A stretch of DNA of 64,000 nt, from positions 94,458 to 158,457 of the forward strand of contig JAYPJF010000001.1 in assembly GCA_038128225.1 (NCBI GenBank), given 5' to 3'. The notes below the pieces were generated by a model. The model made no database searches. It saw only the letters and a program-made list of their open reading frames with translations, and was not told the DNA's origin. Positions within the stretch are counted from its first letter, which is position 1, and the number at the start of each line of letters is the position of its first letter. A program made the translations under genes and the position numbers. This DNA comes from a bacterium (lineage in GTDB: Bacteria; Patescibacteriota; Minisyncoccia; Phycocordibacterales; UBA2100). This document shows, piece after piece, positions 4,604 through 56,196 of the stretch.

Positions 4604-4676
4604 TCCGCCCCCCTGGACTCGAACCAGGAACCGCAGAGGTATAAGCTCTGTGCTCTAACCATTAAGCTAGGGGCGG
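4604..4676 (-). tRNA. tRNA-Ile, anticodon UAU (decodes AUA)
   Basis: Cloverleaf read by hand on the minus strand. Acceptor CCGCCCC/GGGGCGG (7 bp), U8, D-stem GCTT/GAGC with a GG D-loop. Anticodon stem CAGAG/CTCTG with loop CTTATAC. Variable loop of 5 nt. T-arm CCTGG-TTCGAGT-CCAGG. Discriminator A. CCA is not encoded. Confidence 0.8.
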
Positions 4677-10823: not shown

Positions 10824-11211
10824 GGGGATGATTGGCTTCGACAAAGAGATACGGATCATACATATGCATGGCATAGCTGTGGTATCTATTCAAACTGCCA
10901 CAAACCAATAAGTGCAAACAAAACTGCACGTGGAATCTTGAGCCCAATTCAGGCAAAAGATCTCCAGTTCGCTTACGCATTAGCCTAAGCGACCGCTCGC
11001 CTATCGACATCCGATACATAGTTGCGAACGTCATACTTTCGGGTTCGACAACGCTTCAGTCTGGAAGCGACGTCTAAAGAAACATGACTCGAGTTTGTGC
11101 GATCTTGTGCATTCACAACGCGCAACCTCTAAACCTCTCTGAATGTACTACGCCTTGTAGATAGATGTGTGTTCCCTCTTTTGGACGGGGGTTCAATTCC
11201 CCCCATCTCCA
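10824..11211 (+). ncRNA. ssrA: tmRNA (ssrA), one-piece
   Basis: 5' end GGGGAUGAUUGGCUUCGAC. 3' tRNA-like end GGACGGGGGUUCAAUUCCCCCCAUCUCCA. Acceptor stem 7 bp with G3:U70. Internal tag frame ends ...AKDLQFAYALA then TAA (10986-10988). A terminator hairpin lies at 11228..11256. Located directly after smpB. Confidence 0.8.
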
Positions 11212-11227
11212 CATCAATAGACACGCT

Positions 11228-38721: not shown

Positions 38722-39096
38722 TCACTGCCGTGAGAGCGCCCCGCCTTGTTCCATTTTGCGATATATGAAATACCCGAGCGCGAGAACTATTAGCACCAAA
38801 ACACCCAGTGCAATAGAGTGCCCCCCGCGAGATTGTTCTTGAGGCACCTCCGATTCAACAAACCCATCATTACTCTCAAACTCGGGCGTAGCAACCGATT
38901 CAGTAATACGTTCAGGCGTAATACCTGCCTCAACTGATTTTTTTGTAAGAGAAGCGACGAGTGTGTCAAAATCTCCCTGCGACAACCCCTCTGTGGTCGC
39001 CTGTTCTTGAAGGGCAGCGCGAATCTCAGCAGCTACACTGGCTTCTTGCGCGTAAACCGGCACCGCAATCACTAAAAACAAAAACGCAATGATCAT
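38722..39096 (-). CDS. Hypothetical small secreted/membrane-anchored protein inserted between rpsJ and rplC
   Basis: N-terminal signal/transmembrane segment MIIAFLFLVIAVPVYA, an acidic middle region, and a C-terminal transmembrane segment LGVLVLIVLALGYFIY. Confidence 0.5.
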   Translation of the reverse strand: MIIAFLFLVIAVPVYAQEASVAAEIRAALQEQATTEGLSQGDFDTLVASLTKKSVEAGITPERITESVATPEFESNDGFVESEVPQEQSRGGHSIALGVLVLIVLALGYFIYRKMEQGGALSRQ

Positions 39097-39190
39097 GCGG
39101 GAAGTATACCGCACGCGCGATCCATAACATCCCCTTATCAACAAAACCCGCTTGCGGGCGGGTTTTGTTGCGTTTCCTCAAGGAAACACT

Positions 39191-39544
39191 TTACATCATT
39201 TTTACGTCAATATTGACTCCTGAAGGCAAATCAATGTTTGTAAGTGCCTCAATGATCTTCGGTTCAGGATTCATGATGTCGATCATCCGTTTGTGAACTC
39301 TCATTTCGAATTGTTCTCGCGCGTCCTTGTGGACGAATGTCGAACGGTTCACGGTGTATTTACGGATATCAATGGGGAGCGGTACAGGTCCAACCACTTT
39401 CGCATTGAAGCGTACAGCGGTGTCCATGATTTGTTTGACTGCGTTATCAAGCACGCGATGTTCATATGCGCGTACGCGTATACGAAGCCGTCCTTGGGCA
39501 TCAGTCTTTTTTGTCCGCTTTGAAGCTGTCATAGTACAAGCCAC
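39191..39544 (-). CDS. rpsJ: 30S ribosomal protein S10
   Basis: RLRIRVRAYEHRVLDNAVKQIMDTAVRFNAKVVGPVPLP. Confidence 0.9.
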   Translation of the reverse strand: MACTMTASKRTKKTDAQGRLRIRVRAYEHRVLDNAVKQIMDTAVRFNAKVVGPVPLPIDIRKYTVNRSTFVHKDAREQFEMRVHKRMIDIMNPEPKIIEALTNIDLPSGVNIDVKMM

Positions 39545-39577: not shown

Positions 39578-40777
39578 TTAGGCAACAACTTTAGTTACTA
39601 CACCTGCGCCAACGGTCTTGCCACCCTCGCGAATAGCAAAGCGCTGCTGCTCTTCAAGAGCAATCGGGCCGACGAGTTTTACCTTGAAGGTAACCGTATC
39701 GCCTGGCATAACCATCTCGACACCCTCTTTAAGCGTTACCTCACCGGTAACATCGGTAGTACGCATGTAGAATTGCGGTTTATACCCTGAGAAGAATGGC
39801 GTATGGCGACCGCCTTCCTCCTTCGAAAGAATGTAGACTTCCGACTCAAATTCTGTGTGAGGAGTAATTGAGCCAGGAGCACACAAAACTTGTCCGCGAT
39901 GCACATCTTCCTTTTTTGTGCCGCGCAAAAGAATTCCTGCGTTGTCTCCAGCTTCGCCATGATCAAGTGATTTGTTGAACATTTCGATGCCAGTTACCGT
40001 TGTTTTTGCAGTGTCCTTGATGCCAACAATCTCGACATCAGCACCTACCTTGAGAACGCCGCGTTCGATACGACCAGTAACCACGGTTCCGCGACCCTCG
40101 ATCGAGAAGATGTCCTCAATCGGCATGAGAAACGGCTTTTCTTTGTCACGCTGCGGCATTGGAATGTACTCGTCGAGCGCTTTTACAAGTTCAAGTACTT
40201 TTTGTGCCCATGGATCGTCAACCGATGAAGCTTCAAGTGCCTTAAGACCCGAACCGCGAATTACCGGTGCGTTAGCGCCGTCAAATTCGTACTTGGTCAA
40301 AAGTTCACGCACCTCTTCTTCAACGAGATCGATAAGGTCATTGTCCTCAACCATGTCGCACTTATTGAGCCAAACAATGATCTTAGGCACACCCACTTGG
40401 CGAGCCAAGAGAATGTGTTCGCGAGTCTGTGGCATAACACCATCGGTTGCTGCAACCACCAAAACTGCGCCATCCATCTGTGCGGCACCCGTGATCATGT
40501 TTTTGATGTAATCAGCGTGCCCTGGAGCATCGATGTGAGCGTAGTGCCGATTCGGCGTCCAGTACTCAGAGTGGTGAATCGAAATGGTAATGCCGCGAGC
40601 CTTTTCCTCGGGCGCGGAGTCGATTTTATCGACTGCCTCAACGCGCGCACCATATCCTTGGTCCTTGGCCATATCCAAAACCCTAAGGATTGCAGCGGTC
40701 GAGGTTGTCTTGCCGTGGTCAACGTGGCCAATGGTGCCCACGTTTACGTGCGGCTTCGAACGATCGAAATCTGTCAT
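39578..40777 (-). CDS. tuf: Elongation factor Tu
   Basis: GHVDHGKTT; full-length EF-Tu of 399 aa. Confidence 0.97.
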
Positions 40778-41080
40778 AATAAATAGCTTACGGGACCGTT
40801 AGATACGAAAGCGCAAGAACATGCCTCTCGTCTCTAACGCTACCCACTTATAAACGAAGGCGCGTACTGCGCCGATCGTAAAAAAAGTGTAACAGAGTTA
40901 CAGTGCACGTCAAGAAAGACCTTCGGCACCTCGTTAATTTTTATACCGTATAAAAGCATGTTTCTACACCACTGCTCACATCGGAAGTGCACGCAAACTG
41001 TTGCTCCCCGCACTTAGCTGTCCTTCTGTTACTTTATAGGCGCACCGAACGATACGATGCGAGAAAGGTGTTTTGATAGG

Positions 41081-42253
41081 CTATTCCCCACCATGCTCCA
41101 TCTCTAGCGTATACAAGCCAGCACGATCAGGCACAACTCCATGAACAACCATATCGTTTGCAATATACGTATGATCCCCGCTAACGTATAAGTTATAGAG
41201 TTTCTGAGCTTCTTGCGTGTTAGGGATTACTTCAAGAGTTTCCACTACAAGTTCGCCATCTGCAAGAAGGATAACGTCTCCAACATCCAGCTGTCCAACA
41301 CGTCCTGCAAGCTGATCATATGCTTCAACTTCAGCCATTGACGGGTTTGCTGCTTTCCACCCTTCAGCGGTCATCACAGGGTGGTTGTCGGTCATAAACG
41401 GCTCACCTCCATTTATACGAATCAGGTGCTGTGGTTTGCTTTCCCACAGCATTGTGTGGTCGAGTGCAAGCACGACATTACTACCACCATGGGGAGCGCG
41501 CACATGGTCACCAACACGAATTTCGTAAATCGGTTTTTGCGAACCGTCTTCCATTGTCACCAAGGTTTCTTTAGTGAAACAAGAACAACGCCCGCCACTT
41601 GGGCATCCTGAAGAAGTGAGTGTGCCATTAACGCATCTCGTTACGTTCACACCGTTAACACTTCCAGTACAACCGCTTGTACAAATACTCACAGCCGATA
41701 CAGCACCATTGGGTACATCCCCACACGTAGTGGTACTGCAGACAATACCGTCTCCGGCACTATTTGCCTTACAATACCTACTTGCCGTGAGCGTACTGAC
41801 TTGTGGGTCTGTTTCCGTGTATGAAAGCAGTGGCTGGTCGGAGGTACACGTTACCTGTGTCCCGTTAGTGGTACACCACTTCCCACTTGTAAGCGTACCT
41901 ACCTGAGGGTCTGATTCACTTACTGAGGTGAAGTTGGTCCACCCCCCACCGCTGTTTTTGTATTCAATGACCCCCGCATTATCCCTGATACCGTATCCGG
42001 CCGATCCTGCAGTCGTACCAAAATTTAAGTATCGAGAGGCACCGGAGAGAATCGCGTTTCCGTATACCGCGAGCGAGTTTACACCAAGACCCGCGTTCTT
42101 GATCTGATCAGTTGTCCCAACATTAACGGGAGCCGACACGTTTCCATTTGGAGGTGTCTGCGTAGGGCCCGTCCAGGCATACACAACACCAAGCGTCGCA
42201 AAAATTACAGCTCCTGTTATGAACGACGCGATGTGTGAAAGGGGTTTGGGCAT
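41081..42253 (-). CDS. Secreted protein with N-terminal Cys-containing repeats and a C-terminal Hint (hedgehog/intein-like, BIL-type) domain
   Basis: N-terminal hydrophobic segment. Repeats ESDPQVGTLTSGKWCTT and ETDPQVSTLTASRYCKA. The Hint domain starts CFTKETLVTMEDGSQKPIYEIRVGDHV and ends YNLYVSGDHTYIANDMVVHG, matching the intein N- and C-terminal splicing blocks. Confidence 0.65.
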   Translation of the reverse strand: MPKPLSHIASFITGAVIFATLGVVYAWTGPTQTPPNGNVSAPVNVGTTDQIKNAGLGVNSLAVYGNAILSGASRYLNFGTTAGSAGYGIRDNAGVIEYKNSGGGWTNFTSVSESDPQVGTLTSGKWCTTNGTQVTCTSDQPLLSYTETDPQVSTLTASRYCKANSAGDGIVCSTTTCGDVPNGAVSAVSICTSGCTGSVNGVNVTRCVNGTLTSSGCPSGGRCSCFTKETLVTMEDGSQKPIYEIRVGDHVRAPHGGSNVVLALDHTMLWESKPQHLIRINGGEPFMTDNHPVMTAEGWKAANPSMAEVEAYDQLAGRVGQLDVGDVILLADGELVVETLEVIPNTQEAQKLYNLYVSGDHTYIANDMVVHGVVPDRAGLYTLEMEHGGE

Positions 42254-42255
42254 AC

Positions 42256-43140
42256 TTATAGTTCACGCCAAAATGGCACAGCTCTAATAGTAACACTCTC
42301 TTCCAGAGTAGAATCGTCTAGACCTGTGCATGAAAGTGTGTATGTAACCGTGGCAGTAACCGGCGAGGATGTCTGGGAACCCGAAAGTCCACTCCACGCA
42401 TCACCATTCCCCGAAACGGTACACGAGACCGCGTCATCAGTACTCCAGGTGATTGTTGCCGTAGTACCTCGTACCAATAAAGACGGTGTTGCAGTGATCG
42501 TGCCGCCTGGGTCTGGTGCCGGTACACACGCACCGCTTTGACACTGGTAGCTACACACCTGCGGCGTGCCAGCAATCGTATCGATACCACATGACAAATC
42601 TTTATAGTGAAGCGTATCGTCAGTACAGTAGTACCCGTACGTCTGCTCGCAAGGATAATTTGCAGAAAAATCAATCCACCCCAGGTTTGTATCCCCCCAC
42701 GCCCAATCTAAAATCGCATTGCCAACCGCACTGAGACCGTAGGAAACCCCGTCAAGACTAACCCATCCATCCCACGCTCCATTTTGCGGATCTGAGGACG
42801 AAAGAACTTTCAACCACCCAGTCACTGAGCTCCCAGAAACTTGCGGAGTACATGGTGCACTAGGACATCCAGTCACATCAGCTGTTTGGGCGCTGATCCA
42901 ACCAACGTTCTCACTCCACGCATACCCAGAAATGACGCCACTTCCATTCATCGAGAGTCCGTACGAGACAGTACTGCATGTACCCAGGTCGCTGCAATTG
43001 AGCGAAATCCATCCAATTGTGTCGCTCCACGCCCACCCAGTTATTGCTTGTGTGCTTTGGGAAAATGCCGCGCGAGGTGCAAGAAACGATCCTGCCAGGA
43101 TCATACAGAACGCAAATGCCACAAGGAGCGAGTGCTTCAT
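42256..43140 (-). CDS. Secreted protein with repeated G(W/Y)AWS(D/E)xxGWI motifs
   Basis: Signal peptide MKHSLLVAFAFCMILAGSFLAPRAAFS. Motifs GWAWSDTIGWISLNC, GYAWSENVGWISAQT, LDWAWGDTNLGWIDFS. Confidence 0.55.
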   Translation of the reverse strand: MKHSLLVAFAFCMILAGSFLAPRAAFSQSTQAITGWAWSDTIGWISLNCSDLGTCSTVSYGLSMNGSGVISGYAWSENVGWISAQTADVTGCPSAPCTPQVSGSSVTGWLKVLSSSDPQNGAWDGWVSLDGVSYGLSAVGNAILDWAWGDTNLGWIDFSANYPCEQTYGYYCTDDTLHYKDLSCGIDTIAGTPQVCSYQCQSGACVPAPDPGGTITATPSLLVRGTTATITWSTDDAVSCTVSGNGDAWSGLSGSQTSSPVTATVTYTLSCTGLDDSTLEESVTIRAVPFWREL

Positions 43141-43514
43141 AGATCAGTTAAACGCACAGAGCTGAGGATTTGGAGTTTTTCTTCCTCAGACATGTTTTGT
43201 GACGGGCTTCCGCTGACTTGCTCAAGAACCTCGAGTTTTTCAACCTCGGATAGTGCCGAGGGCTGTGTCGTCTCTTGTACCGCACGAAGTATTTCTTCTT
43301 TGTTCAAAACACCTCCCTCGTCGTCACCAAGCGCGTCATGCGGTTCAAAAACGGGGGCTGTGTTTACCTGCGACCCTGAAAAAAAATAAAACGCAAAAAA
43401 GAGCAGCACGCCTGCAAGCGCAAATCCGATACTAAACTCAAGTATCGGATGGAATGCGCGTTCCCCGCGCAAAAAACGTACCCACGCACTCTCTGTGGGA
43501 ACTTGCTCACTCAT
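43137..43514 (-). CDS. Hypothetical small membrane-anchored protein (125 aa)
   Basis: One transmembrane helix (ILEFSIGFALAGVLLFFAFYFF) followed by an acidic tail. ATGA overlap with the upstream gene. Confidence 0.45.
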   Translation of the reverse strand: MSEQVPTESAWVRFLRGERAFHPILEFSIGFALAGVLLFFAFYFFSGSQVNTAPVFEPHDALGDDEGGVLNKEEILRAVQETTQPSALSEVEKLEVLEQVSGSPSQNMSEEEKLQILSSVRLTDL

Positions 43515-43572
43515 GTCGGCAGTATACTACTCCCGAAGCGAAGACGAGCGAGCCCTTGTGGATGAAAATGAT

Positions 43573-45717
43573 TTACTTCCGACTTGCCATTACTTCATCA
43601 GCAACGTTTCGTGGAACAACCGCGTAGTGATCAAATTCCATAGTTGAGTTTGCACGACCTTCGGTCATAGAGCGAAGCACTGTTGTGTACCCAAACATTT
43701 CTGAGAGCGGTACGTGTGCCGTGATTACCTTGAGTCCCCCAGTACGATCATCGATTGACTGAATTGAGCCGCGTTTACCATTGAGATTGCCCGTAACATC
43801 ACCCATAAATTTTTCCGGTGTTACGACTTCGATTTTCATAATAGGCTCGAGAAGTGCTGGCTTGGCAGATCGCACTGCTTCTTGAAATGCCTGCGAAGCA
43901 GCGATTTTGAAGGCGATTTCTGATGAGTCGACTTCGTGGTATGTACCATCAAACAATTCGACTGAAATATCCACGACTGGATACCCTGCAAGCACACCGC
44001 GCCCCATCGCTTCGCGTACACCTTTCTGCACTGCGGGAATATATTCGTTCGGAATAACACCACCTTTAATGTTGTTGATGAATTCGAAATGATCTTCGCG
44101 CGTGACGCTATGCGGGATTTTTGCACCTTCCTCTAACGGTTCCAGCGGCTTCACGCGGATCTTTACGTGGCCATATTGGCCCTTACCACCAGTCTGCTTG
44201 ATGTATTTGTTTTCGATCTCAGCGTTGCCTTGAATGGTTTCGCGATACGCAACCTGTGGTTTGCCAAGCGTTGCCTCAACACCAAATTCTCGGCGCATAC
44301 GGTCAACAATAATATCGAGGTGTAACTCACCCATTCCCGCAACAAGCGTGTCGCCTGTTTCTTCATCCGAATACACACGGAATGTTGGATCTTCGTCACC
44401 AAGTTTGGCAAGCGCCATACCCATTTTTTCTTGGTCGTTCTTAGTTTTAGGCTCGATACGAGCTGAAAGAACTGGTTCGCGGAATTTAATTTGTTCGAGA
44501 ATAATTGGACTCTTCTCATCACAGATTGTATGACCGATTTTTGCCTCTTTTGCTCCAACGAGTGCAGCAATTTCTCCCGTGAACACCTTTTTTATTTCTT
44601 CTCGCTTGTCTGCCTGAAGGCGAACAATACGTCCAACTCGCTCCTTTGTTCCGTTCGATGCATTGTACACATAACTCCCTGCTTCAAGGGTGCCTGAATA
44701 GACGCGGAAGAACGAAAGTTGCCCCACGAACGGGTCAGCCTGGAGTTTAAAGACGAGCGCGGCAAAAGGTTCTGCGTCTGATGGGCCGCGAGTAATCTCT
44801 TCGCCAGTGTCAGGATTTACTCCCTTAGCTGCAGGAAGATCGAGAGGACAAGGAAGATAGTCAACGACGGCATCGAGCACTAACTGGACTCCTTTGTTTT
44901 TGAGCGCCGTCCCACACAAGACAGGGAATATTTTGTTCGCAATGACTGCCTTACGCAGCGTAGTCTTAAGTTCTGAAAGTGACGGCTCCTTACCTTCAAG
45001 GTATGCACTCATCAGACCCTCATCGTGTTCGACGATCGCTTCGATTAATTCCGCGCGGTACTTACCCGCGTCCGCCTTGAAAGCCTCTGGAATTGGCCCC
45101 GCAATAACCTCTTTACCTTTATCCCCCGCAAAGGTGTATGCCTGCATCGTCAAAAGATCAATAACACCTTCCATTGCATCCTCTTCTCCCATAGGAAGTT
45201 GTGTGCGAATTGCGTTTTTAGACAAGCGATCTTTGATCATTCCGTATGAGCGTTCAAAAGAAGCGCCGGTGCGATCAAGTTTATTCACAAAACAAAGCCG
45301 TGGCACATTCGCGTCTTCCGCATAGCGCCAGTTAGTTTCTGTCTGAGGCTCAACTCCCGCGACACCGTCAAATACGACAACGGCGCCGTCTAGCACACGC
45401 ATTGAACGCTGCACTTCTGAGGTGAAGTCAATGTGTCCCGGAGTATCGATGATATTGAAACGGTGCTTGTTAGAAGTGTCAGCACCCATGTATGTTGGGT
45501 TCCAGAAACACGTGATTGCAGCAGCGGTGATGGTAATGCCGCGCTCGCGCTCCTGCTCCATCCAGTCGGTCACTGTAGCACCCTCGTGCACCTCTCCGAT
45601 TTTATGGCTTTCGCCAGTGTAGAAAAGAATGCGCTCCGATGTGGTTGTTTTTCCCGCATCAATGTGGGCGATAATACCGAAGTTGCGGACTTTCTCGAGT
45701 GGGTAGTCGCGGTTCAT
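43573..45717 (-). CDS. fusA: Elongation factor G
   Basis: AHIDAGKTT; full-length EF-G of 714 aa. Confidence 0.97.
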   Translation of the reverse strand: MNRDYPLEKVRNFGIIAHIDAGKTTTSERILFYTGESHKIGEVHEGATVTDWMEQERERGITITAAAITCFWNPTYMGADTSNKHRFNIIDTPGHIDFTSEVQRSMRVLDGAVVVFDGVAGVEPQTETNWRYAEDANVPRLCFVNKLDRTGASFERSYGMIKDRLSKNAIRTQLPMGEEDAMEGVIDLLTMQAYTFAGDKGKEVIAGPIPEAFKADAGKYRAELIEAIVEHDEGLMSAYLEGKEPSLSELKTTLRKAVIANKIFPVLCGTALKNKGVQLVLDAVVDYLPCPLDLPAAKGVNPDTGEEITRGPSDAEPFAALVFKLQADPFVGQLSFFRVYSGTLEAGSYVYNASNGTKERVGRIVRLQADKREEIKKVFTGEIAALVGAKEAKIGHTICDEKSPIILEQIKFREPVLSARIEPKTKNDQEKMGMALAKLGDEDPTFRVYSDEETGDTLVAGMGELHLDIIVDRMRREFGVEATLGKPQVAYRETIQGNAEIENKYIKQTGGKGQYGHVKIRVKPLEPLEEGAKIPHSVTREDHFEFINNIKGGVIPNEYIPAVQKGVREAMGRGVLAGYPVVDISVELFDGTYHEVDSSEIAFKIAASQAFQEAVRSAKPALLEPIMKIEVVTPEKFMGDVTGNLNGKRGSIQSIDDRTGGLKVITAHVPLSEMFGYTTVLRSMTEGRANSTMEFDHYAVVPRNVADEVMASRK

Positions 45718-45729
45718 AGGAGGCCTATA

Positions 45730-46191
45730 CTACCACGCAAAGTGAGCAAACGCTTTGTTTGCTTCCGCCATTTTGTGCATATTATCTTTTTTAGCAATTG
45801 CCGCCCCTTCATTGTTGCGCGCTTGGAGAATTTCTTGCGCAAGCTGCTTTCCCATAGGTATCCCTTTTGCCGCTTCTGCAGTTTGTACTATCCACCGAAG
45901 CGCGAGTGCGAGCTGGCGTTCCGGACGAACAGGAACTGGAACTTGGTAGTTTGCGCCACCAACACGACGTGACCGTACTTCAAGATTTGGTTGCACATTT
46001 TGGAGTGCTTCCTCAAAAATCGCTACCGGATCTCCTTCTTTTTTCATTTCTTCAAACGCTGCATACACTACTTTTCGCGCAGTATCTTTCTTACCGCGCT
46101 CCATCACGTAATTGATGAGTTTGGCAACACGAACCGATTTATATCTCGGGTCTGGTGCGGTGGTAGGTTTTTTCTTAAGCGGACGTCGCAT
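45730..46191 (-). CDS. rpsG: 30S ribosomal protein S7
   Basis: S7 family match. Confidence 0.9.
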   Translation of the reverse strand: MRRPLKKKPTTAPDPRYKSVRVAKLINYVMERGKKDTARKVVYAAFEEMKKEGDPVAIFEEALQNVQPNLEVRSRRVGGANYQVPVPVRPERQLALALRWIVQTAEAAKGIPMGKQLAQEILQARNNEGAAIAKKDNMHKMAEANKAFAHFAW

Positions 46192-46193
46192 AA

Positions 46194-46604
46194 TTAGTTT
46201 TTAGGTTTCTTTGCTCCATAGCGCGAGCGGCCGCGGCGGCGTGCATCAACTCCCGTTGCATCAAGTTTACCGCGCACGATAGTGTATCGGAGTCCGATGT
46301 CTTTTACACGACCTCCTCGAAGAAGCACGACCGAGTGCTCTTGGAGCGCGTGTTTCTCACCAGGGATATACGCCGTTACTTCTTGCTGGTTTGTAAGGCG
46401 CACGCGAGCGATTTTTCGAATAGCTGAGTTAGGTTTTCGAGGAGTTTTTGTAGTTACCTTCACACACACCCCACGCTTAAAAGGCGCCGGGTAAAATGTT
46501 GGGCGGTTCTGAATAGTATTAAAACCACGGCGCAGTGCAGTAGTTTTCGATTTAGAAATCTTATCCTTGCGGGATTTTCGTACGAGCTGATTGATTGTTG
46601 CCAT
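46194..46604 (-). CDS. rpsL: 30S ribosomal protein S12
   Basis: [11 protein letters not shown] block; 136 aa. Confidence 0.92.
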
Positions 46605-55113: not shown

Positions 55114-56196
55114 CTACTTGTTCGCAGCCGCCGTCACGCCTGGCTCCTGCTTGTTGAGTTCGCGCATGAGGTCGCCGAGCATCAACGGAAGCCCGTTGCC
55201 GGGATTACCGATGATGACGACTTTGGCGTTCCCCGACTTCGCGAGCTCCTCGGTCGCCTCGATACCCTTCCACACGAGAAGGTTCTCGTCGATTCCTTGG
55301 CTCACCTTTGTCTGGAAGACGGCGATGCCGTCCGCCTCGATCGATTTGCGTTCCGCCTCCATTTTCGCTTTCTGGATGACGAACACCATGCGCTCCGCCT
55401 CCTGCTCTGCTTCCTTCTTTGCAGTAATGGCGGCAATCAGGCGCTCCGGCGGCGTGATGCGCTTCACCAGCACCTGCTGGATCAGAATGCCGACGCGCTT
55501 TCCACTCGGGTCTTGCTGGGCGACGAGTCCCTGAACGATCTCGGAGAGCTTTTGCTGCATCTTCTTCTCGGCCGCTTCCCTGCTTGAATACAGGTCACGG
55601 AACGAGTACGAGCTGCCGACATCGCGCGCGATCGCGTGCACGGGGCTCCGAACGAGCTTTTCCGTGTAGTCGTCGCCGAACTTCGTGTACACGAAGCTCG
55701 CATCATCAGACACGAGCGAGTAAAGGATCGTCAGATCCACATTCACGCTCAGGTCGTCCTTCGTGATGATGTTGACGGGACCACCGCCAACCTGTGTCAT
55801 CTCGTCGCTCGGTCCGTGCGGGCCGGCGATAGCGTACGATTCCGTCCTCACACTCATGTGATTGACAGAGGTGAGCGGATTGACGATGCGCAGACCATTC
55901 GGAAGCGGTTCGCCAGTGCTGCCGAAGAAAATTGGCACACCAACATACCCTGGACTCACGATCACGAACACCTGAAGCAGGGTCACGACGACGAGCGCCA
56001 AGGCGGCGGCGCCGGCAGCAAGCCCGGGAACTAACGGTGGAACGCCGTTATACGAGCTTCCTTCCGCGTTACGTGCACTTAGCGTGGAACGGTAGAATCG
56101 TACCCCTACGAAAATAATCGTAAGAAGCACGATGGTGGAGACTACAAAGCCCATAGAGCTTTCTCCTTTGTAGTTTTCGACGAGCATCCGGACCAT
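55114..56196 (-). CDS. SPFH/band-7 (stomatin/HflK-like) domain membrane protein
   Basis: N-terminal transmembrane segment, SPFH core, and a C-terminal Ala/Glu-rich coiled coil (EAEQEAERM...AKMEAERKSIEADG). Confidence 0.6.
   Translation of the reverse strand: MVRMLVENYKGESSMGFVVSTIVLLTIIFVGVRFYRSTLSARNAEGSSYNGVPPLVPGLAAGAAALALVVVTLLQVFVIVSPGYVGVPIFFGSTGEPLPNGLRIVNPLTSVNHMSVRTESYAIAGPHGPSDEMTQVGGGPVNIITKDDLSVNVDLTILYSLVSDDASFVYTKFGDDYTEKLVRSPVHAIARDVGSSYSFRDLYSSREAAEKKMQQKLSEIVQGLVAQQDPSGKRVGILIQQVLVKRITPPERLIAAITAKKEAEQEAERMVFVIQKAKMEAERKSIEADGIAVFQTKVSQGIDENLLVWKGIEATEELAKSGNAKVVIIGNPGNGLPLMLGDLMRELNKQEPGVTAAANK

Follow-up and report, generated by a model that had tools for sequence, protein, structure and literature searches.

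The stretch of 64,000 nucleotides analysed here (the window; contig JAYPJF010000001.1, positions 94,458 to 158,457) comes from a Patescibacteriota genome in which a cassette of three genes separates fusA, encoding elongation factor G (EF-G), from tuf, encoding EF-Tu. We give about even odds (roughly 0.5) to the reading that this cassette is an old, clade-specific cell-envelope module of three parts, which closes the rpsL-rpsG-fusA unit on its 3' side and lies ahead of a separate tuf promoter, and which would provide an adhesin fibre and its base. fusA and tuf are adjacent in most bacteria, and both belong to the str operon of E. coli. In the window, the minus strand carries in order rpsL-rpsG-fusA, a gene for a protein of 125 amino acids (aa), a 294-aa gene (GW), a 390-aa gene ending in a Hint domain, and tuf-rpsJ. 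The canonical str layout, with tuf directly after fusA in one transcription unit, is broken by 2.8 kb between the fusA stop and the tuf start, by the three genes, and by a promoter-like site ahead of tuf. A reading made from the sequence alone (below, the sequence-only reading) had described three co-oriented genes with tight or overlapping junctions at this place, and they are present as follows.

43573..45717, minus strand: fusA (EF-G, 714 aa), the upstream anchor; open reading frame (ORF) with Pfam GTP_EFTU, EFG_II, EFG_III, EFG_IV and EFG_C, E-values down to 5e-62
43515..43572, minus strand: fusA-to-cassette spacer, 58 nt, with no promoter-like or terminator-like site listed in the scan
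43137..43514, minus strand: small membrane protein gene, 125 aa; ORF
42256..43140, minus strand: GW-repeat secreted protein gene, 294 aa; ORF
41081..42253, minus strand: gene for a fibre-like protein ending in Hint, 390 aa; ORF with Pfam Vint and Hint
39578..40777, minus strand: tuf (EF-Tu, 399 aa), the downstream anchor; ORF with Pfam GTP_EFTU, D2 and D3

The small gene and the GW gene overlap by 4 nt (ATGA), the GW and Hint genes are joined as TAA, 2 nt, ATG, and a spacer of 303 nt separates the cassette from tuf. We infer that the cassette is co-transcribed with fusA and extends the rpsL-rpsG-fusA unit in the 3' direction. Window positions 40709-44209, which include both junctions, recur at 100% identity in an independent Logan assembly (L087), and therefore the junctions are not an assembly artefact.

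A recurrent module and its three proteins

We examined two sets of relatives: a GW-anchored genome sample, which was ascertained through GW, and a metagenome sample drawn through EF-G. The cassette recurs as a module composed of a membrane-anchored acidic protein, a secreted Trp-rich barrel/Ig-like protein and one to eight proteins that share a conserved N-terminal domain (N-domain). The small protein lies 5' of GW genes both between fusA and tuf and at other sites, and its design, a transmembrane (TM) segment followed by an acidic EEKL tail, was found in all 31 upstream partners of GW genes that were inspected. Three GW homologue contexts have the order fusA, small protein, GW, one to five variable fibre-like genes, and tuf. 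Of the 60 genome loci in which GW is full-length, 43 contain at least one N-domain gene, which in 25 of them starts no more than 400 nt downstream of GW. The GW-anchored DNA (1.25 Mb) contained 90 N-domain high-scoring segment pairs, compared with one in 0.87 Mb of EF-G-anchored DNA. The number of fibre genes per locus ranges from 0 to 8, and the window has one, which ends in Hint. Two GW-plus-fibre pairs stand in tandem in L007 (6789-11309), and five (L010) or eight (L042, 4400-14500) fibre genes follow one or two GW genes in other loci.

Pfam lacks a model for the small protein, the GW protein and the N-domain, NCBIfam and PHROGs returned no family for the three cassette proteins beyond Hint, and in the literature we found no description of the cassette or of its three protein families. 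We conclude that the three families are undescribed, and that the cassette combines fibre-like proteins with swappable tips, autoprocessing of the bacterial intein-like (BIL)/Hint type and insertion at an operon boundary.

The 125-aa product is the small membrane protein that had been proposed: a single TM helix near the N-terminus (residues 24-42) is followed by an acidic tail, outside the cytoplasm, in which the motif S/ExxEKLxILxS is repeated, the last time (EEEKLQILSSV) close to the C-terminus. The family ending found across the module is EEKLxILxSL. The protein had no match in Pfam, NCBIfam or PHROG. The GW protein is built as follows.

42646-43053, minus strand: Trp-rich beta-barrel, residues ~30-165, after the signal peptide
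Between the barrel and the Ig-like domain, minus strand: Cys-rich linker
42277-42513, minus strand: Ig-like domain, residues ~210-288
42259-42276, minus strand: invariant C-terminal P-x-W/F/Y-x-E tail

More than 330 GW homologues were found, mostly of about 300 aa. Their alignment revealed five invariant G..W hairpin units, the Cys-rich linker, the Ig-like domain and the C-terminal P-x-W/F/Y-x-E motif, and the predicted barrel is lined with Trp. The term "GW repeat" thus holds for the five units, but only as a descriptive label, as neither the Listeria-type GW profile nor the choline-binding CW_binding_1 profile of Pfam was matched. Beyond a sub-threshold CBM_4_9 hit, the 294-aa protein had no match in Pfam or NCBIfam; Foldseek of the barrel against BFVD returned nothing at E <= 0.001, and a profile search of PDB sequences with the GW alignment found nothing. 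A GW pattern scan of species genomes yielded at least 559 relatives, with 559 of 599 confirmed among the matches listed. The 390-aa protein has the following parts.

Residues 1-26 of the 390-aa protein, minus strand: predicted Sec-type signal peptide, predicted cleavage after VYA26 and before W27
41924-42175, minus strand: conserved N-domain, residues 27-110, 60-70% identical to more than 200 proteins
Between the N-domain and Hint, minus strand: two ETDPQV..C..C repeats and a Cys-rich stalk
41138-41581, minus strand: Hint domain, C225-G372, placed by Pfam and catalytic motifs
41084-41137, minus strand: conserved 18-aa tail after Hint

The N-domain spans about 85 aa, and the more than 200 proteins that share it bear other C-termini; mean column identity is 66%. 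An exhaustive HMMER search recovered 5354 cluster representatives at E <= 1e-3, of which 909 remained at E <= 1e-10, and most N-domain proteins are 160-450 aa long with the domain immediately after the signal peptide. Among 117 members, the C-termini were Peptidase_S74 (21), HCBP_related (10), Gly_rich_2 (5), collagen (4), GP38 (3) and Hint (3), together with BppL_N, tail collar and C1q, and with PT-HINT in two. One family member has a Shufflon_N match (7e-6). A profile search of PDB sequences with the N-domain alignment found nothing. Exchangeable tips on a conserved N-terminus are the layout typical of receptor-binding fibres. In giant proteins of 2000-6000 aa (P0242-P0250), the second half of the N-domain (YLNFG..GYGIRDN.G..EFKN.GG.W) is repeated up to 12 times. 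We also considered a type IV pilin and rejected it by inspection: the N-terminus (M..K.., a 17-residue hydrophobic stretch, VYA/WTGP) is not a prepilin leader, which would end in Gly and be followed by F/M-T-L-I-E and some 20 residues of hydrophobic helix.

One of the closest known parallels to this architecture is with phage tail fibres and tailspikes that carry a C-terminal Peptidase_S74, an intramolecular chaperone that cuts itself off the fibre and on which the analogy for Hint cleavage is based. Both have a conserved N-terminal attachment region, a swappable C-terminal region and a self-cleaving module at the C-terminus, and paralogues in sister loci bear S74, GP38, Gp34_trimer and collar domains. 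In contrast to phage fibres, genes of the window type are cellular, lack viral homologues and encode Sec signal peptides, the window copy uses Hint rather than S74, and the GW and small TM partners have no phage counterpart. Pfam detected no Peptidase_S74 in the window's 390-aa protein, which is therefore not a tail fibre of the S74 type.

That this protein carries a Hint domain was borne out by two Pfam profiles over residues 223-375, Vint at 34.1 bits (cut-off 27) and Hint at 32.8 bits (cut-off 29.7), which place it in the HINT superfamily. The domain aligns end to end with a DnaB mini-intein and with the 6tmm/6y75 chain (deposited as NAD(P)(+)--arginine ADP-ribosyltransferase). Six homologues all share C225, T288, N290 and H291, which provide the Cys nucleophile and the block-B TxxH motif. 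At the other end, VVH371-G372 and then V373 stand where inteins have a terminal HN, and only 18 residues lie beyond. Because G372 takes the place of the terminal Asn, Hint should be unable to splice or to cleave by Asn cyclisation, and the N-terminal thioester step alone appears to be available. N-terminal self-cleavage between S224 and C225 is predicted, since Cys and TxxH are present and the terminal Asn is absent. A canonical class 1 intein was rejected (no terminal His-Asn, no +1 Cys/Ser/Thr, and a host that is a non-conserved secreted protein), as was a Hedgehog Hog domain (the conserved 18-aa tail alone follows Hint, with no sterol-recognition region). Matches to the BIL domain in PDB (2lwy, E 0.58) and to PT-HINT (13.5 bits versus a cut-off of 27.7, E 0.087) were weak.

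B-type BIL domains have all intein motifs but the C-terminal one, undergo N-terminal cleavage and occur where bacterial proteins are hypervariable (PMC7765530). By its motifs, the window's Hint appears to fit the description of B-type BIL and Hedgehog-type Hint domains: it has the Hint fold, an N-terminal Cys and TxxH, lacks a terminal Asn or +1 nucleophile, and occupies the variable end of a secreted protein. It differs from them in belonging to a rare subfamily with a conserved VPDxAG..HxGE 18-aa tail, in having no sterol-recognition region or C-extein, and in being fused to a Patescibacteria-specific fibre N-domain. About seven sequences of this subfamily were found; a search with the Hint region alone returned a single protein, and the window is the sole carrier among all 170 loci fetched. 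On non-Patescibacteria contigs, Hint domains of this subfamily with the VPDxAG..HxGE tail follow other secreted N-termini (L088, 6001-7035; L089, 4075-7557, a tandem pair).

Linkage to fusA and transcription of tuf

In the GW-anchored sample, 14 loci had a co-oriented GW between fusA and tuf and 2 had it there inverted, and about 10 more loci were on truncated contigs adjoining fusA or tuf. Four loci had GW next to rpsJ or rplC: it followed rpsJ in L029, preceded rplC in L021 and L031, and lay between both in L042. About 45 loci, mostly more distant, had neither fusA nor tuf within 10 kb. In the EF-G-anchored sample, the fusA-tuf gap ranged from 76 nt to 5 kb and held unrelated cargo, with GW in just three loci. 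We placed 99 sequences from both samples in a neighbour-joining EF-G tree. The loci with GW in the gap fell in one clade with the window, and the GW cassette followed fusA in 20 of 20 evaluable loci of this clade, including the EF-G-ascertained L090 and L106. A separate pair (L124, L066) likewise had GW there, some 40 evaluable loci beyond the clade lacked it, and in the most distant group fusA and tuf were nearly contiguous. These results agree with the proposal of lineage-specific cargo. Conserved synteny extends only so far: the linkage is kept inside the window's clade, whereas distant Paceibacteria carry the module elsewhere and have fusA and tuf 76-450 nt apart.

Orthologous cassettes at the same site are only 37-50% identical, and therefore we conclude that the linkage of fusA and cassette is old. 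GC content is flat across the region (0.49-0.52 in the three cassette genes), and the codon-usage distances of the cassette genes are 0.81, 0.90 and 1.30, with a window mean of 0.97 and a standard deviation (sd) of 0.21. Native composition and divergent orthologues contradict a recent insertion, which the sequence-only reading had offered as one option. Its premise that this is the most conserved of junctions also failed in this lineage: gaps of more than 300 nt occurred at rpsG-fusA in 7 of 11 loci, at tuf-rpsJ in 7 of 13 and at rpsJ-rplC in 6 of 7, and many relatives carry unrelated cargo between fusA and tuf. Such cargo (L042, L110, L127, L132, L135, L116) comprises toxin-antitoxin-like pairs, pyrD/pyrF-like genes, rplJ/rplL-like genes and a gene for a 763-aa Cys-rich secreted protein.

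Most simply, the module would have entered the fusA-tuf junction in the clade ancestor and stayed there, and the junction cargo would since have grown to 1.7-14.5 kb, with occasional moves of the module (L042). In the favoured explanation, the cassette would be an old, vertically inherited feature of one Kaiserbacteria-like Patescibacteria clade. A study of the translation-gene supercluster describes foreign or lineage-specific genes that settle at its transcription-unit boundaries (PMC6735719). The window resembles those cases in having a lineage-specific cassette at a transcription-unit boundary, and differs from them in that the break lies inside what is the str operon of E. coli and the same module is found across a clade.

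Upstream of tuf, on the cassette side, we found three features.

40886..40913, minus strand: tuf promoter-like site, TTGACG, 16 nt, TACACT, with an upstream TG (sequence scan)
40859..40873, minus strand: hairpin GGCGC-AGTAC-GCGCC, then TTCGTTTATA, 12 nt past the -10 element and inside the tuf leader
40778..40885, minus strand: structured tuf 5' leader (folding energy versus shuffles)

A conserved extended -10 promoter, TTGACg-N17-TGtTAgTAT, lies ahead of tuf in 17 of 21 related loci, and the window has a like layout; most promoter-bearing relatives also have a hairpin and T-run 6-12 nt past the -10 element. Because this conserved promoter and hairpin layout precedes tuf, we conclude that tuf probably forms its own transcription unit in this lineage, which would make the break between fusA and tuf possible. 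With its own promoter in front of tuf, the cassette would not be an internal part of a fusA-tuf transcript, and its co-expression with tuf is doubtful. The suggestion that the cassette is highly expressed along with translation factors is thus half plausible, as it looks like a 3' extension of the fusA unit but tuf has a conserved promoter of its own.

The hairpin had been taken as a feature 3' of the cassette. It is present at 40859-40873, about 210 nt past the cassette end and 80 nt ahead of tuf, but it belongs to the tuf leader, because it lies downstream of the promoter-like site. It may terminate read-through from the cassette, cap the 5' end of the tuf mRNA, or both. RNAalifold across relatives found only three core pairs conserved, such that the hairpin is conserved in position with weak covariation support. 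The 113 nt at 40778-40890, which are the leader together with 5 nt from the -10 element, have a folding energy of -45.1 kcal/mol, compared with a shuffle mean of -27.0 (z -5.8). No Rfam family matched the tuf leader, which may be an undescribed leader RNA. The tuf leaders of relatives (L003, L008, L014, L017, L029, L035, L045, L058) share the conserved blocks cgtgcggattagcgacccgc and ccggagcac..cgcgttggca.

Proposed mechanism and competing explanations

In the mechanism that we propose, the three genes would be read through from fusA and translationally coupled, and all three products would be exported. The small protein would stay in the membrane with its N-terminus in and its C-terminus out, displaying acidic EEKLxILxSL helices, and the GW protein would be secreted with its barrel, Ig-like domain and PxWxE tail. 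The 390-aa protein would lose its signal peptide between A26 and W27. As its architecture and gene neighbourhood suggest, the N-domain may dock on a base of membrane protein and GW, while the variable C-terminal part would point outward as in phage tail fibres and serve as an adhesin or receptor-binding fibre that binds a host or a substrate. Hint would form a thioester at S224-C225, cut itself off, and release or transfer a mature fibre of ~200 aa. This self-removal would parallel that of the self-cleaving Peptidase_S74 chaperone at the same position in paralogues. A bolder version, which we regard as improbable, is an undescribed Patescibacteria-specific surface-appendage system of the three proteins, with a fixed base and exchangeable tips and, in one clade, wired to the str unit at its 3' end, in which the Hint thioester of this genome would ligate the fibre C-terminus to a nucleophile of the cell's own envelope or of the host, as a Hedgehog-like "harpoon".

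Several observations weigh against an adhesin module fixed at this site. The clade evidence is partly GW-ascertained, with just two clade members from the EF-G-anchored sample. The position is not fixed, as L042 has the module at rpsJ-rplC and toxin-antitoxin-like genes at fusA-tuf (417-2237). No N-domain gene was found within 10 kb in 17 of the 60 GW loci. The RBS-like (ribosome-binding site) GGGAG of the small gene sits 16 nt from its ATG. Trimer and fibre geometry is assumed by analogy, and it is from co-occurrence only that the N-domain would appear to dock on the GW/TM base. We infer the surface-adhesin function itself from protein architecture and gene neighbourhood.

The most serious alternative, although clearly the weaker one, is that the junction is a permissive gap between two transcription units that collects unrelated genes, the three genes being mere neighbours. 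It would account for the tuf promoter in most relatives, for the interruption of other cluster junctions, and for EF-G-anchored relatives in which 76 nt to 5 kb at fusA-tuf hold toxin-antitoxin-like, pyrD/pyrF-like, rplJ/rplL-like and membrane-protein genes. However, the triad recurs together at other genomic sites, its junctions overlap or are 2 nt apart, and the position of GW is clade-wide. Somewhat less likely still, the products could have a structural or housekeeping role in the envelope, for instance as a surface layer or a cell-wall-binding scaffold, rather than being adhesins, and the GW barrel would then bind wall polymers of the cell itself. Wall-associated proteins often contain aromatic-rich hairpin repeats and Ig-like domains, the barrel is predicted to be Trp-lined, and a site beside highly expressed translation genes would suit an abundant structural protein. 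Against this stand the lack of a match to CW_binding, GW, SLH or peptidoglycan (PG)-binding families and the wide variation in fibre copy number (0-8) and C-termini, which receptor-binding diversification fits better.

A conserved N-terminus with swappable C-termini is also the pattern of polymorphic toxins, in whose systems Hint domains occur, and the weak PT-HINT match, with the two family members that carry this domain, would suit secreted effectors that use Hint as a pretoxin release module. We consider this unlikely, because the conserved 18-aa tail alone lies beyond Hint with no toxin domain, no immunity-like small gene follows before the tuf promoter, and the other C-termini are fibre or adhesin domains. 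The Peptidase_S74, GP38, Gp34_trimer, tail-collar and BppL_N domains of family members could instead mark the remnant of a prophage or tailocin tail-fibre cluster. This is more improbable again: GW and N-domain profiles found no relative among the 2.9 million viral contigs of IMG/VR, PHROGs gave one weak match, in the Hint region, no other phage genes flank the cassette, and its composition is native and its position clade-wide. Least credible of all is that the cassette was recently inserted by horizontal transfer or arose as an assembly artefact. Against the background of most bacteria the gene order stands out, but the GC and codon-usage values, the divergent cassettes at the same site across the clade and the independent assembly of both junctions leave very little room for either.

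For Patescibacteria of the class Paceibacteria, a life of attachment to host cells is assumed, and few of the molecules involved are known. A widespread module that resembles a receptor-binding fibre with swappable tips would thus supply concrete attachment candidates, and its Hint-tipped variant offers a test case for Hint autoprocessing in a bacterial surface protein. For operon evolution, the locus indicates that a very conserved gene pair can be split, with tuf gaining or keeping a promoter and the junction becoming a stable landing site. In epibiotic Paceibacteria, secreted Ig-like proteins of unassigned function are reportedly highly expressed (PMC10936435). By comparison of descriptions only, those Ig-like/PKD proteins and the cassette proteins have in common secretion, Ig-like folds, the same class and, for the proteins of that study, a proposed role in host attachment; the GW barrel, the N-domain family, the EEKL protein and the str location are absent from that paper.

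Neighbouring genes and other features of the window

The remaining genes of the cluster are rpsL, rpsG and rpsJ, and the ribosomal cluster is interrupted a second time between rpsJ and rplC.

46194-46604, minus strand: rpsL; ORF
45730-46191, minus strand: rpsG; ORF
39191-39544, minus strand: rpsJ; ORF
38722-39144, minus strand: 140-aa ORF, the second interruption; signal peptide at the start, TM helix at the C-terminus

A homologue of the 140-aa protein, 32% identical, is found at the same junction in L001. Inteins in fusA were considered and rejected, as the long fusA match spans in the metagenome table are joined EF-Tu cross-matches. The sole Rfam matches in the window are a tmRNA (10824-11214, plus strand, 113 bits) and one tRNA (4604-4676, minus strand). 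The compositional outlier of the window is an SPFH/Band_7 gene at 55114-56196 on the minus strand, with a GC content of 0.58 and a GC content at third codon positions (GC3) of 0.74, compared with about 0.50 and 0.48 elsewhere, and this gene may have been acquired horizontally.

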